Shown: positions 24,031 through 29,957 of the stretch, one piece after another
Layout of the letters: every line of letters starts with the position of its first letter
Numbering within the stretch: position 1 is the first letter of the stretch
DNA from: a virus
Strand: one strand, 5' to 3'
Length of the DNA: 30,012 nucleotides
UHGV virus genome: UHGV-0120925
Made by a program: the position numbers and the translations under genes
The notes under the pieces: generated by a model
Database searches by the model: none
Told to the model about the DNA's origin: nothing
The model's input: the letters and a program-made list of their open reading frames with translations, nothing else

Positions 24031-26937
24031 ATGGAATTCTTTAATGTGGTTAAAGCCACTCAGAAATCCGGAAAGCAAGATGCAGTGGTCTGGTTCACTG
24101 CTAAAACCGAGGCTCGCGCCAATCTGATGCTGGATGTTGCGCTGGAAGATGCAGGTATCGAAACAGGTCGGGGTAAGGACTACGCCAAACCGATTCGCAC
24201 TGATTTCCCAGTTGTCGACGGCCTGCCGAAAGAAGGTGAAGTTGATTTTACCTGGTGTGATCGCTACGAGCTTCATGACGATGGGCGCACCTGGCTGCCA
24301 AAAGTCACAGCTGAAAACTCTGACGAGAAAACGGCTCAGACCGTTGATAGTCACATAACTACTGAGTCAACGCTGTCAGAAACCGCTGGCATCACGCTGG
24401 ACGAACACGACGACGACTCAACCCTCTACCCGGTAGTGCAGATGCCGTTTCGTAAGCAACTGCTTTCCCAGTTCACCGCCGACGAACTGCGCCACCACGT
24501 AACCCATGAAGAGTACGAAGCTATCGGCGCGCTGGAGATGGACACTGATAACAGTTACGTCCAGAACTTGCTGTTAGCTGCTGAGAACTGCCCGGAAGTG
24601 AAGGGTTACGACACCAAAGACCTGTGGCGTTACACCGATGCCATTCGCAAAGTGTTCAGCCAGGACAAGCGTCACGAACTCGCGCTGGTACTCCGTTTCA
24701 CCAGAATGTGGGCGGCGACTGATTACATTGACCGTGGCATCCTGGCGCGTGAATGGGCCGCCGGTAATCGCATCAGTAGTGTGCAGCGTACTGATTCCGG
24801 CACTAATGCCGACGGCGGTTACGTCACTGACCGTGGACCTGAGGCACACCACACACTGGACACTCTCGATTTAGAGATTGCGTGTGCCCTTCTGCCTATG
24901 GACTTCAACCACTTCGAGATCCCGGGCAGCATTCTTCGTCGCGCTAAAGAAATCGTGACCAAAAAAGAAGAACCATGGAAATCATGGAGCAACATCCTGC
25001 GCAATCAGCCAGGCGTTCTGGGTGTTAACCGCACGGCTATTTTTAACCTGGTACGTATCGCACCGGAAAATATTCATTTAACTCCTGTCGCTCACCTGGA
25101 ATTTGTTAACCAGACCATGACAGCCGCGTTCAATTCCGCGGTCGAGTTATTGCCGTTGCATGAAGCTGAACCCGCAGCACAGGAAATTCCCCAACCTGAA
25201 GGTAAGGAGTCTCCGCGCAAATCCTTCTGCACTCACGAAGAGAACCTGCAACGCGTGCGTGAAGAAGGAGCACGCCGCCGCGCAGAGGAAGCGGCAGCAC
25301 AACCGCAGAAAGTCGAACAAGAACTGGTTAAAAATGTCGGCAACGGAATATTCGACGTTACGGCTTTGCTGCAGAACTCAGCAACTCATGGCACGAAAAA
25401 GGCTACGGAGACCACCAGCAATGTGCAGGTTCAAGAAACTGTCAGTGATGAAAAACAAGCTGGTGATGAAGTACAGCCAGGCGAAAGCAGTCTGGAGTCT
25501 GGTGAAGAGTCAGATACCAGCCAGAAGGACGATGTAGACCAGAATACGGATTCTGTCGCCAAAAATAGCGATTCTGTAAGCCAAACCGAACCAGTTGCAA
25601 CACAAACCGAGCCAGAAGCGCAATCTGACGAACCAGCTGTTGTTTATCCCGCTTATTTCGAGCCAGGCCGCTATGAAGGGCTGCCAAACGAGGTTTACCA
25701 CGCCGCCAACGGCATCAGCTCAACCCAGGTGAAAGATGCGCGCGTTTCGCTGATGTACTTCAATGCGCGCCACGTAGAGAAAACCATCGTCAAAGAGCGC
25801 TCAGCGGTGCTGGACATGGGCAACTTGGTGCATGCGCTGGCGTTGCAGCCTGAACTACTGGACGCAGAATTCAGCGTTGAACCGGTGATCCCTGAAGGCG
25901 CATTCACAACGGCCGCGACCCTGCGCGCCTTTATCGATGAGCACAATGCCAGCCTGCCGGCGCTGCTGTCTGCCGACGACATCAAGGTGTTACTGGAAGA
26001 GTACAACGCCACCCTGCCGCCGCAGGTTCCGCTTGGCGCTAACCTGGAAGAAACGGCACAGAACTATATGGCGCTGCCAGCTGACTTCCAGCGTATTGAT
26101 GGTGACCAGAAGCAGACGGCGACGGCAATGAAGGCATGCATTAAAGAGTACAACGCCACCCTGCCGCCGCCGGTTAAAACCAGCGGCAGCCGTGACGCGC
26201 TGCTGGAGCAGTTGGCAATCATCAACCCTGACCTTGTGGCTCAGGAAGCACAGAAACCGGCACCACTGAAAGTGTCCGGTACCAAAGCAGACATGATCCA
26301 GGCCGTGAAGGCAGTCAAACCAGATGCCGTATTTGCCGACGAACTGCTGGATGCCTGGCGCGATAACCCGGAAGGAAAAGTGCTGGTCACCCGCCAGCAG
26401 CTGAGCACCGCGCTGAATATTCAAAAAGCGCTTCTGGCACACCCGACCGCCGGCATGCTGCTGACCCACCCTAGCCGAGCCGTTGAGGTGAGCTACTTTG
26501 GTTTTGACGAGGAGACGGGCTTGGAAGTTCGTGTGCGCCCTGACCTTGAGATCGACCTGGATGGCGTGCGTATAGGTGCAGACCTGAAAACCATCAGCAT
26601 GTGGAATGTTAAGCAGGAAAGCCTGCGCGCCAGGCTACACCGGGAAATTATTGAACGTGATTATCACCTGAGCGCGGCTATGTACTGCGAAACCGCAGCG
26701 CTGGATCAGTTCTTCTGGATTTTCGTCAACAAAGACGAGAACTACCACTGGATCGCCATCATCGAGGCATCCGCTGAACTACTGGAGCTGGGTATGCTCG
26801 AGTACCGCAAAGCGATGCGCAATATCGCAACCGGATTCGACACAGGTGAATGGCCAGCGCCAATCACTGCTGACTACACCGACGAACTGAACGACTTCGA
26901 CCTGCGCCGCCTTGAAGCGCTGCGTACTCAGGCATAA
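24031..26937 (+). CDS. recE: RecE-like exonuclease VIII (C-terminal PD-(D/E)XK nuclease domain) with long N-terminal extension
   Basis: 968 aa immediately upstream of recT. C-terminal region ...YFEPGRYEGLPNEVYHAANGISSTQ...DLEIDLDGVRIGADLKT... is consistent with a RecE/YqaJ-type nuclease. Central acidic low-complexity stretch. Confidence 0.8.
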   Translation: MEFFNVVKATQKSGKQDAVVWFTAKTEARANLMLDVALEDAGIETGRGKDYAKPIRTDFPVVDGLPKEGEVDFTWCDRYELHDDGRTWLPKVTAENSDEKTAQTVDSHITTESTLSETAGITLDEHDDDSTLYPVVQMPFRKQLLSQFTADELRHHVTHEEYEAIGALEMDTDNSYVQNLLLAAENCPEVKGYDTKDLWRYTDAIRKVFSQDKRHELALVLRFTRMWAATDYIDRGILAREWAAGNRISSVQRTDSGTNADGGYVTDRGPEAHHTLDTLDLEIACALLPMDFNHFEIPGSILRRAKEIVTKKEEPWKSWSNILRNQPGVLGVNRTAIFNLVRIAPENIHLTPVAHLEFVNQTMTAAFNSAVELLPLHEAEPAAQEIPQPEGKESPRKSFCTHEENLQRVREEGARRRAEEAAAQPQKVEQELVKNVGNGIFDVTALLQNSATHGTKKATETTSNVQVQETVSDEKQAGDEVQPGESSLESGEESDTSQKDDVDQNTDSVAKNSDSVSQTEPVATQTEPEAQSDEPAVVYPAYFEPGRYEGLPNEVYHAANGISSTQVKDARVSLMYFNARHVEKTIVKERSAVLDMGNLVHALALQPELLDAEFSVEPVIPEGAFTTAATLRAFIDEHNASLPALLSADDIKVLLEEYNATLPPQVPLGANLEETAQNYMALPADFQRIDGDQKQTATAMKACIKEYNATLPPPVKTSGSRDALLEQLAIINPDLVAQEAQKPAPLKVSGTKADMIQAVKAVKPDAVFADELLDAWRDNPEGKVLVTRQQLSTALNIQKALLAHPTAGMLLTHPSRAVEVSYFGFDEETGLEVRVRPDLEIDLDGVRIGADLKTISMWNVKQESLRARLHREIIERDYHLSAAMYCETAALDQFFWIFVNKDENYHWIAIIEASAELLELGMLEYRKAMRNIATGFDTGEWPAPITADYTDELNDFDLRRLEALRTQA

Positions 26938-26942
26938 GGGGA

Positions 26943-28061
26943 ATGATGATGGAAAACACGAATATCGTAACCGCTGAACAGCAGACTCCAAACACGATCT
27001 CAGCCAGCAATGCCATTTTCAACGTGCAGGCTTTAACCCAGCTTCAGTCTGTCGCCGGGTTGATGGCACAGGCAGCCGTAACGGTGCCTGAGCACCTCCG
27101 CGGCAATCCGGCAGACTGCATGGCCATCATCATGCAGGCGATGCAGTGGGGTATGAACCCTTACGCCGTGGCGCAAAAGACGCACCTGGTTAACGGTGTC
27201 CTGGGATACGAAGCGCAACTGGTTAATGCGGTGATCTCCAGCTCAAACGCCATCGTTGGCCGCTTTCACTATGAGTACGAGGGCGACTGGTCGAAATGTG
27301 CCAGCAGCCGCGAGATAACCGTTAAAAAGCCTGCGAAAGGTGGCGGGACGTACGACAAGAAAGAAATGGTACGCGGTTGGGAAAGTGCTGATGAACAAGG
27401 ACTGTCGGTACGGGTAGGTGCCGTTATTCGCGGTGAAAGTGATATCACCTGGGGAGAGCCTGTTTTACTCTCCAGCGTAATCACACGTAATTCTCCACTT
27501 TGGGTATCAAACCCGAAACAGCAGATCGCTTATCTGGCACTCAAATACTGGGCGCGCCTATATTGCCCTGCAGTTGTTCTTGGTGTGTACACCCCTGATG
27601 AGATTGAACAGCGCACAGAAAAAGAGATCAACCCAACGCCGCAACGCGTTAGCCTGGCTGATATCTCAGGTGACACCGTCACAACCACGCAAAGCGCACA
27701 GGAATCGTCGGTAAATGTCGACTCTCTTGCCGATGATTTCCGCGAACGCATCGAATCTGCTCAGGACGTGGATAGCACCAAATCGCTGCGTGCCGACATT
27801 GAAACGGCGAAAGCTACGCTGGGATCCGCACTATTCACCGAGCTGAAAAACAAAGCCGTAAAGCGTTATTACCTAGTGGATGCACGCAACAAGGTTGAGG
27901 AGGCTATTAAATCCCTGCCCCAGCCCGACGAGCCGCATGCAGCCGAACGGTTCGCTGAAGCCGAGCGCATGCTTACATCTTCAAAGCGTCACTTAGGCGA
28001 TGAACTGCACGATCAATTCAGCATCACCCTGGCGGATATGAAACCGGAATACGTGGCCTGA
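26943..28061 (+). CDS. recT: RecT single-strand annealing recombinase
   Basis: RBS AAGGGG. Region ...CMAIIMQAMQWGMNPYAVAQKTHLVNGVLGYEAQ... matches the RecT family. Paired with the upstream RecE-like gene. Confidence 0.9.
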   Translation: MMMENTNIVTAEQQTPNTISASNAIFNVQALTQLQSVAGLMAQAAVTVPEHLRGNPADCMAIIMQAMQWGMNPYAVAQKTHLVNGVLGYEAQLVNAVISSSNAIVGRFHYEYEGDWSKCASSREITVKKPAKGGGTYDKKEMVRGWESADEQGLSVRVGAVIRGESDITWGEPVLLSSVITRNSPLWVSNPKQQIAYLALKYWARLYCPAVVLGVYTPDEIEQRTEKEINPTPQRVSLADISGDTVTTTQSAQESSVNVDSLADDFRERIESAQDVDSTKSLRADIETAKATLGSALFTELKNKAVKRYYLVDARNKVEEAIKSLPQPDEPHAAERFAEAERMLTSSKRHLGDELHDQFSITLADMKPEYVA

Positions 28062-28383: not shown

Positions 28384-28581
28384 ATGGATGATATTTTGGT
28401 AACGTCAGACCTGACCAGTCGCTACAAAATTTCACGCAAAACCCTTTGGTCATGGCAAAGTGCAGACACAATGCCTCGGGGCTTCGTATGCCCGTTCCCA
28501 CCCCCTGACTGGCCCGGCAACCCTAACCGCTGGCGCTCTGAGTCAATCAAAGAGTGGGAGGATAAAAAGAAGATAAATTAA
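28384..28581 (+). CDS. xis: Excisionase / AlpA-like DNA-binding protein
   Basis: Start at ATG 28384 with RBS GGAGAG; the track ORF from 28339 begins with TTG. Pattern ...[12 protein letters not shown]...PRGFVCPFP... fits the AlpA/Xis winged-helix family. Converges on the int 3' end. Confidence 0.6.
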
Positions 28582-29771
28582 CTGAAGGGCTCTCCGATGA
28601 TCTCTTCAAGATGGCTCTGCCAAACGCGGAGCCAGTGTTTCTGATCATCGATATAGTCATGAAGGTTGTAATGCGCCATAACCCCCACCATCTGATGCCC
28701 GAGCAGCTTTTCAATTACGTGCGGCGGGCAACCTAACTCAGAGAGATTTGTGGCTATCGTCCGCCTCATATCATGAAGCGACCACTCTGCCATACCTGTT
28801 CCATTCCAAATAGAACGGGCGTAATTGGATGCCACAGGTGAATGAACGGGCGAATCTTTGATCCCGCCATCAATTTTACGTTGTGAAGTCACCAGGTGAT
28901 TGGTGTTTATTTTCTTGAGGTGATTTCTGACCAGGTTAACGGCGGCGTCTGAGAGTCCCCTTCTAATATGTACCCGAGTTTTATAACTGCCCGCAGGCAC
29001 GACCCACTCATTATCATCCAATCGAAACCATGATCTCTCACTAAGTCGAATCTCAGCCGTACGGCATCCGGTAAGCATAATAAATTTCACCAGGAAAACG
29101 GACTCTATCGACATATGGCTTTTCAACCACTGATAGATTTTGCGCAGATCGTCATCGTCCATCCTGCGAGTTCTCTTTTTAGGCTTTTGCCCGACATCAG
29201 ATGGCAGTAATCCCTCGAGTGGGTTTGAGGCGATCACACTTCTGTTAACGCAGAACCTAAACGCCCGTTTGCACAGCGAAAGCATGTAATGAGCCATCAC
29301 CCTGCTTTCTATAGAATCGAAGACGTTGATCCAGTGCATTTTCGCTGTGTTATCGACTTTGACATTCTTCATCGGTTCGGCGATATGTTTCTCAAACACC
29401 TGGCGATAGTAATCGACTTTAACTAGCCCGTTAGCGATACAGTGCCTTTCAATCCAGTAATTGAACGCTTCGGCAACGGACATCGCTTCCTGTCGGGTCT
29501 GCTTATCCAGCTTCACCTGCTCTCGCGGATCCAGTCCCTCAGTTAACCAGTTTCTGAATTGTTGGCGACGCTCTCTTGCCTGGGTGATACTCATTGCAGG
29601 ATAATCACCAACATTGAGTTTTACCGCTTTACCGGCCCAGCGATACCGATAGAAAAATGATATTTTTCCGGCCTGGCTGATTCTGGCGTTGAGCCCGTGC
29701 GAATCAGAAATAATCTCGATATCATCTCTTTTCTTGCCGAGCGCCTTCCTGAGCTTTGTGTCGGTGATCAT
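28578..29771 (-). CDS. int: Tyrosine site-specific integrase
   Basis: C-terminal catalytic region with R...HDMRRT...H...Y residues ([30 protein letters not shown]). Start set at ATG 29771 ([10 protein letters not shown]), typical of P4-type integrase N-termini; upstream in-frame codons run through the GTACACA repeats and are probably untranslated. Confidence 0.88.
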
Positions 29772-29776
29772 TGAAT

Positions 29777-29817
29777 GGGTACACATTTTTGTTTTTGGGT
29801 ACACAAAAGTGTACACA
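29777..29817. repeat. Three direct repeats of G(G/T)GTACACA just upstream of the integrase start; candidate arm-type or operator sites
   Basis: GGGTACACA at 29777..29785 and 29797..29805, GTGTACACA at 29809..29817 (contains the palindrome GTGTACAC). A single GTACACA also sits in the left-end hairpin loop at 136..142. Confidence 0.4.
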
Positions 29818-29957
29818 AAGTTGCCCACTCAAAGCTACACGCAATGTAACACTAGTTCGCAGAGTGTTATGGTTTACATCCTTGAAAGCCTGCTGGATAA
29901 GGGTTTAGCGTAACAGAACGTTTTTACGCGGAATTGTTCGTAATATGCCAAATGACA

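Follow-up and report, generated by a model that had tools for sequence, protein, structure and literature searches.

Internal repeats of a RecE-family phage exonuclease lie in a predicted helical module array at the disordered-loop position of the nuclease domain

The virus genome UHGV-0120925, a stretch of 30,012 nucleotides (nt) referred to here as the window, carries a recE-like gene at 24031..26937 on the plus strand, and a short peptide motif is repeated three times within its product. This open reading frame (ORF) encodes 968 amino acids (aa), arranged as an N-terminal Exonuc_VIII region, an acidic linker, and a C-terminal PD-(D/E)XK nuclease domain which contains the array of modules discussed below. 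Pfam family PF06630 (Exonuc_VIII) covers aa 4-180, PF12684 (DUF3799) matches aa 791-943 with 39.8 bits against a cut-off of 26, and the profile phrog_607 ('exonuclease') scores 1192 bits. An Escherichia coli prophage gene that is 99.7% identical is annotated as 'RecE family exodeoxyribonuclease', as is the 97% identical protein of phage mEp237; protein identity falls to ~61% for Gifsy-1/2 and 44% for Rac-SA53. The annealase partner gene recT (26943..28061, plus strand; Pfam RecT, E=2e-36) follows directly, and an integrase gene lies at 28578-29828. On these profile matches, together with the predicted fold, the catalytic residues, and the pairing with recT, we assign the gene product to the RecE family of exonucleases.

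The nuclease domain is divided in two. Its first part (aa 546-619; 25666..25887, plus strand) holds a GISST motif and the active-site His601 (LVHAL), is matched by phmmer to chain residues 5-66 of 3H4R, the nuclease domain of Rac RecE, and is modelled confidently by AlphaFold2. The second part (aa 782-968; 26374..26934, plus strand) holds D838 (RPD) and D851-x-K853 (ADLKT), and is the part covered by PF12684. The catalytic set His...PD...DxK (H601, D838, D851/K853) is complete and invariant in both of our homologue alignments, with H601 aligned to H652 of RecE. Between the two parts lies the module array (aa 620-781; 25888..26373, plus strand). In a phmmer search against PDB sequences, 3H4R was the only match and was recovered in two pieces, one running from query aa 554 and chain residue 5 onward, the other joining query aa 782-946 to chain residues 92-252. 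As 3H4R aligns on both sides of aa 620-781 but not across it, the repeats belong inside the nuclease domain. The first-pass annotation, made from the DNA alone, had placed them in a linker upstream of that domain; this placement has to be abandoned, since the domain begins near aa 546 and the repeats (aa 636-712) fall between H601 and the GKVLVT strand at aa 782. If H601 is anchored on RecE H652, so that residue n of the 3H4R chain equals RecE residue n+601, the 162 residues of the insert stand in for just 34 residues of Rac RecE (665-698), up to GKTVIT.

Structure prediction agrees with the alignment. The AlphaFold2 model of aa 535-968 has a mean predicted local distance difference test score (pLDDT) of 87.6, and its top Foldseek match in the PDB is 3H4R (E=1.3e-8; template modelling score 0.58, target-normalised), followed by other PD-(D/E)XK nucleases. 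Modelled alone, the insert is all-helical with a pLDDT of 91.1, and the same eight helices are found in both models (aa 628-641, 648-661, 672-680, 697-709, 721-731, 733-740, 752-762, and 769-778). In these models each copy of the motif forms the last turn of a helix (..EYNAT) and then an extended, Pro-rich segment (LPPxV). Two kinds of unit can be distinguished. An 'A' unit is a helix ending in (Y/H)NA(S/T)LP, of which there are three, plus a related fourth (ADELLDAWRDNPEGK) that runs back into the nuclease core. A 'B' unit is an extended segment followed by a helix starting with (T/V)SG(S/T)(R/K); the array holds two of these, and a diverged B0 comes after A2. The Rac RecE loop at 665-698 is disordered in the crystal, is partly ordered in unpublished DNA complexes, and probably captures double-stranded DNA (dsDNA); the RecE loops are placed on the ring's rim, the presumed entry side for dsDNA (PMC11611040). 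By alignment and model, the repeats are therefore placed inside the nuclease domain, at the position of the Rac RecE disordered loop and on the rim of the ring channel. Domain prediction accordingly puts them in a folded insertion (pLDDT about 90) that is under purifying selection.

At the DNA level, the 25-mer GAGTACAACGCCACCCTGCCGCCGC is present exactly twice on the plus strand, at 25999-26023 and 26146-26170, as had been reported together with a third, diverged copy nearby; no such repeat arose in 100 dinucleotide-preserving shuffles. The identity in fact extends to 27 nt (AAGAGTACAACGCCACCCTGCCGCCGC; 25997-26023 and 26144-26170), and 31 of 32 nt match between 25997-26028 and 26144-26175. 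Copy 1 (25937..25968, plus strand), at the end of helix A1 and the linker behind it, encodes DEHNASLPAL and is 75% identical to the reference copy. Copy 2 (25997..26028, plus strand) ends helix A2 with EEYNATLPPQV, and copy 3 (26144..26175, plus strand) ends helix A3 with KEYNATLPPPV. The peptides are DEHNASLP (aa 636-643), EEYNATLP (656-663), and KEYNATLP (705-712), so that the triplication of the motif, earlier written as (D/E)E(H/Y)NA(S/T)LP, holds while its (D/E)E prefix is found in two of the three copies only, the third having KE. Start-to-start spacings of 60 and 147 nt, or 20 and 49 codons, are multiples of three and hence keep all copies in frame. The DNA of the copies has diverged except in the short core, and Tandem Repeats Finder reported no array in the gene; the repeats are protein-level modules which share just a short DNA core. 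A fourth 'copy' at 24509-24540, with 63% identity, was rejected as a chance match.

All three motif copies (window positions 25936-25959, 25996-26019, and 26143-26166) also fit the pattern D/E-x-N-x-S/T, as EHNAS once and EYNAT twice. This pattern is the extended bacterial N-glycosylation sequon. We set a sequon reading of the motif aside as unlikely for a cytoplasmic phage enzyme; the motif Asn, invariant across distant homologues, most probably caps the C-terminus of a helix and does not serve for modification.

Nine pairwise comparisons gave the insert a ratio of non-synonymous to synonymous substitution rates (dN/dS) of 0.06-0.17, close to that of the core, which indicates at the sequence level that it is under purifying selection. 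A phmmer search with the insert against 1.84 billion representatives returned 73 matches (representative clusters), of which the full-length ones were all RecE-like, two excepted. These two were rejected as spurious upon inspection of their sequences: P0311 (2580 aa) is a junk-like repeat ORF, and P0307 (1718 aa) is a β-rich protein with Ig/FN3-like repeats. The 3+2 architecture of modules persists down to 44% identity; Rac-SA53, one Actinobacillus phage, one Aeromonas phage, and most representatives at 50% identity also have their motifs 20 and 49 aa apart. Even when the 25%-identical family of Klebsiella phage KA2-1 is brought into the comparison, neither the N of any YN motif nor the G of the SG motif changes. 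The repeats thus do fall within a conserved folded region, an outcome which the first-pass annotation had listed as evidence against its reading if joined with a fixed copy number; the copy number, as described below, is not fixed.

Three further groups of homologues deserve mention. The relatives of KA2-1 (P0121-P0240) are stand-alone RecE-like nucleases with ~25% identity and clearer SAP modules; they have no N-terminal region, and helicase genes rather than recT flank them. In the 32%-identical RecE-like nuclease of Vibrio phage XM1, another sequence, EKYNAWVEAGKPE, occurs twice as an internal duplication at this insertion point, which appears to be a recurrent place for repeat expansion. 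Among the Salmonella homologues (P0022-P0108), dozens of 'partial' proteins of graded lengths end at contig ends, and likely reflect assembly breaks inside recE from the near-identical Gifsy-1 and Gifsy-2 copies.

To describe copy number we took as canonical a layout with three A motifs at +77, +97, and +146 from GISST, plus two B motifs. The first-pass annotation had proposed a comparison of copy number among homologues, and the number proves mostly fixed without being invariant. The canonical layout was found in 110 of the 118 scorable close protein clusters (from a total of 120; eight deviate) and in most 50%-identity representatives. Canonical length was found in 59 of the 61 complete E. 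coli genomes carrying the region, the remaining two (about 3%) being variants, while a scan of IMG/VR for the 27-mer gave no ±147-nt variant, with 42 of 42 loci canonical.

The two E. coli variants concern the same 147-nt (49-aa) unit (25997..26143, plus strand), the boundaries of which are ambiguous within the 27-nt repeat. E. coli O19:H7 730V1, assembly GCF_014771275.1, has lost exactly 147 nt and with them aa 657-705, as seen in the protein alignment, the length census, and a three-way DNA alignment; E. coli CUWW10, assembly GCF_048012795.1, has an exact 147-nt tandem duplication. Over the compared stretch (25900-26257) both are otherwise identical to the window, and their breakpoints lie within the 27-nt repeat. 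Slippage or unequal exchange would be expected to yield just such a reciprocal pair. The deletion in 730V1 joins helix A2 to the linker of A3 and to B1 (..IKVLLE directly followed by EYNATLPPPVKTSGSR..), and a complete module is thereby preserved.

Other lineages show comparable changes. Cluster P0012 has 49 additional aa in the form of diverged duplicates, which indicates an older duplication that was retained, and P0252 is a Gifsy-type variant shorter by 49 aa. Gains of 20 and 31 aa occur in a Klebsiella group and in P0013, and P0279 and P0281 hold three 20-aa units and three 31-aa units. Proteins of the KA2-1 family come in two lengths, 372-380 and 436-454 aa, depending on whether a 25-aa and a 41-aa module are present. 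Array length changes by the in-register gain and loss of whole modules of 20, 31, and 49 aa. The suggestion that the repeats mark a modular, recombination-prone segment is in this respect weakly borne out, by the exact -147 and +147 nt alleles of E. coli and by the 20-, 31-, and 49-aa units elsewhere; the events themselves are rare.

Two further E. coli matches that end in the insert were excluded as deletions or truncations of prophage decay, not mediated by the repeats. The recE of NCTC_13148 continues, at about window position 26286, into a recT that lacks its N-terminal part. In EC2001, sequence upstream of about 26040 is missing, and the truncated downstream RecT gene is followed by an IS26 transposase gene. 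Both junctions lie inside the module array.

While the triplication of the peptide is ancient, the exact 27-nt repeat is specific to the mEp237-type group of alleles, and the longest run shared in the other phage lineages examined is 5-15 nt. The run shared by the copies is 27 nt in the window allele, 22 nt in the E. coli alleles H6 and Res13, and 21 nt in AR0119; three of four diverged E. coli alleles have a shared run of 14-22 nt. Copies 2 and 3 moreover share synonymous states that differ from allele to allele (CCG CCG, CCA GCG, CCC GCG, and CCC GCC, the last in Klebsiella). Such sharing suggests short-patch gene conversion.

The part of the array which most resembles a SAP domain (aa 695-765; 26113..26325, plus strand) consists of helix A3, PPPVKTSGSR, helix B1, a short helix, PAPLKVSGTK, and helix B2, with predicted helices at aa 697-709, 721-731, 733-740, and 752-762. 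A3 with B1 (AMKACIKEYNATLPPPVKTSGSRDALLEQL) and the next unit, PDLVAQEAQKPAPLKVSGTKADMIQAVKAV, read like SAP/HeH motifs. The resemblance is clearer in relatives. The insert of KA2-1 itself matches Pfam SAP with E=1.4e-4, and many KA2-1-type relatives carry a precomputed PF02037 annotation. SAP was matched by 24 of 43 non-redundant 36-aa modules from homologues (E<=1, best 1.3e-6) and SAP_new25 by 14 of the 43, and a profile built from the modules matched the SAP domain of MKL1 (PDB 2KVU) with E=2.9e-4. Judged by profile comparison, a SAP-like character may be taken as supported for the family and not as established for the window protein. At the helices B1 and B2 (window 26176-26325), the module profile matches the WH2 actin-binding motifs of N-WASP as well as it matches a SAP domain, a likeness of short amphipathic helices which calls for caution.

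We interpret the motif as marking the end of a helix and the Pro-rich linker of helix-linker-helix modules, arrayed at the RecE loop, and we would give this interpretation as a whole, with its repeat-mediated events, its gene conversion, and its DNA-binding arms, a probability of roughly 0.55. The ±147-nt events would be due to replication slippage, or to unequal homologous exchange or annealing between the 27-nt repeats, and short-patch gene conversion between modules 2 and 3 may maintain or restore the exact identity. In the RecE tetramer, the SAP/HeH-like modules could form four extended arms around the dsDNA entrance that help to capture or hold the duplex, which is the least certain step; the length of an arm would be set by the number of its modules. 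A bolder form of the proposal, in which each ring has four length-tunable SAP-like arms for the capture of DNA ends, module number sets substrate preference or processivity, and the short repeats are themselves substrates of RecET-type annealing at short homologies, so that the system occasionally re-sizes its own arm, strikes us as unlikely.

Several results count against the arm interpretation. Foldseek found no significant structural match to the insert alone. The best hit of Pfam SAP (PF02037) on the window protein, over SGTKADMIQAVKAV, reached 14.4 bits (E=0.03) against a cut-off of 23.9 and covers only profile positions 19-33, the helix-2 half, and the first A3-B1 unit of this protein gave no SAP match. 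The matches of the module profile are likewise confined to the 13-16 residues of the 'SG(T/S)K..L..RI' half, and the same profile also matches the N-WASP WH2 motifs (SGNKAALLDQIRE), over only 13 residues. The insert has a net charge of -10 and an isoelectric point (pI) of 4.5, with only aa 695-765 neutral to slightly basic, and such acidity is unusual for a DNA-binding element. On the side of the repeats, the +147 variant is known from a single assembly, and copy-number change is rare, so that 'recombination-prone' is a relative term. When the concerted evolution of copies 2 and 3 was put to a permutation test, the result (p=0.06) was no more than suggestive; the value is no lower because other lineages have diverged copies, and in several of them copies 2 and 3 are well diverged.

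The main alternative to the DNA-arm step is the docking of a partner, with the array acting as a scaffold for RecT, SSB, or a host factor and module number tuning the binding. The overall acidity of the insert would suit such a role, as would the position of recT immediately after recE; RecE binds RecT specifically at an unmapped site (PMC11611040), and SAP domains can bind protein, as the SAP domain of SLX4 does with MUS81 (PMC13171448). However, the equivalent loop of Rac RecE is described as DNA-binding and partly ordered in DNA complexes, and the annealase of lambda docks at the face from which the 3' overhang exits while the RecE loops line the rim at which dsDNA presumably enters (PMC11611040). 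The KA2-1-type phages also share the SAP-like modules, yet their nuclease genes are flanked by helicase genes and not by recT. We regard docking as possible and hold it tentatively, as clearly the weaker account.

Should the repeats instead be relics of past duplications, selectively neutral and without specific function, in a surface loop that tolerates them, the 27-mer would be a coincidence of codon usage, and the length variants would be of no account to selection or artefacts of assembly. Rac RecE functions without the array, with its loop of 34 residues only; PHROG 607 places most of the insert in insertion columns; the length variants are rare, with one assembly each; and the conversion test was not significant. 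Neutrality is nevertheless hard to reconcile with a dN/dS as low as that of the catalytic core in all nine comparisons, with the high pLDDT of the models, or with an architecture and motif residues conserved to 25-44% identity. Nine consecutive identical codons have, moreover, a chance of ~1e-3 given identical peptides (a rough estimate rather than a tool computation), and at the repeat the two variants mirror each other exactly as gain and loss, with independent, diverged +49 and -49 variants in other lineages. We consider this explanation quite improbable. Direct repeats within a coding region, with both gain and loss observed, could also bring to mind a programmed contingency locus which frequently turns recE on or off, or moves it from one functional state to another. 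Units of 60, 93, and 147 nt are all multiples of three and never break the reading frame, though, there are only two long copies and no tract by Tandem Repeats Finder, and variants occur in ~3% of E. coli genomes (2/61) and in none of 42 viral contigs; such a switch is very improbable indeed.

Upstream of the nuclease domain, the acidic, low-complexity segment at aa ~431-545 (25321..25665, plus strand; net charge -18, pI 4.05), variable in length in the homologue alignment, is the true inter-domain linker. Within it, at window positions 25533-25615, are two pairs of imperfect 21-nt tandem repeats, 71-80% identical, in an Asp/Glu/Ser-rich stretch whose length varies strongly among homologues. 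The NCBIfam exoVIII equivalog NF007259 scored 461.8 bits on the protein, below its cut-off of 1269, with the best stretch at aa 7-530. Since this match lies mainly in aa 7-530, the N-terminal part is Rac-RecE-like and the nuclease domain is of a different subtype. Several phage tblastn matches, like the equivalog, cover only aa ~8-530, the N-terminal third to half, and the gene has a mosaic appearance, with a Rac-like N-terminal region (24031-25620) joined to a nuclease of another subtype (25666-26937). Some E. coli alleles are 97.8% identical overall and 100% identical in 25700-26600, others 90% overall and 80% there. An antisense ORF of 159 aa on the minus strand (window 25990-26469) overlaps the repeats; it has no support and is probably spurious.

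RecET systems are the basis of recombineering. To our knowledge, the nuclease domain of Rac RecE is the only one of its kind to have been studied structurally, and its DNA-capture loop is disordered and poorly understood. In a widespread subfamily (mEp237, Gifsy-1/2, Rac-SA53, and phages of Klebsiella and Aeromonas) this loop is replaced by an ordered, conserved, and modular helical array, and the natural variants with one module fewer or more may serve as ready reagents for probing the role of the loop in DNA-end engagement, processivity, or RecT loading, and for testing whether arm length can be engineered. The chief value of the insert and its copy-number polymorphism lies in the access that they give to what the RecE loop does. 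There is also a consequence for annotation: owing to the insert, PF12684 reaches no more than the second half of the domain in array-bearing proteins. Within the library searched, our literature searches found no paper linking RecE with SAP, and none on DUF3799 describing the insert. What is added here to a familiar gene family, an insert that varies in copy number, is modest.

The array can be compared with several known systems. With SAP/HeH domains (PF02037; MKL1 2KVU), further examples of which are the C-terminal SAP of Ku70 and the N-terminal domain of Rho, it has in common a predicted module of two helices joined by an extended linker, the second helix opening with a conserved Gly and then a basic residue, seen here as 'TSGSR..LL..L' and 'VSGTK..MI..V', and the homologous modules of relatives score as SAP. 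It differs in having a longer linker that is rich in Pro, in SAP scores below threshold for the modules of the window protein, in structural matches that fall short of significance, in its acidity, and in the embedding of its modules as a tandem array in a nuclease domain, not at a terminus. Systems in which repeat units vary in frame by slippage or unequal recombination likewise show the reciprocal, precise gain and loss of one unit at an exact direct repeat; in contrast to hypermutable tracts, there are only two long copies here, the DNA of the units has diverged, and changes in copy number seldom occur. Beyond the insert, the locus is an ordinary example of repeat-mediated, in-frame length variation. 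Rac RecE (exonuclease VIII, 3H4R) is alike in fold, in PF12684, in its catalytic set, in the N-terminal Exonuc_VIII region, and in the recE-recT pair, whereas it has a disordered loop of 34 residues in place of the 162-residue helical array; the nuclease domains are only ~20% identical, and the window protein falls short of the NF007259 cut-off. The RecE-type exonucleases of the lambdoid phages mEp237, HK225, Gifsy-1/2, and SPN3UB and of Klebsiella prophages are orthologues (59-97% identity) that share the insert and all three motifs, among which the exact 27-nt repeat is found only in mEp237-type alleles and some Klebsiella alleles carry extra units of 20 and 31 aa.

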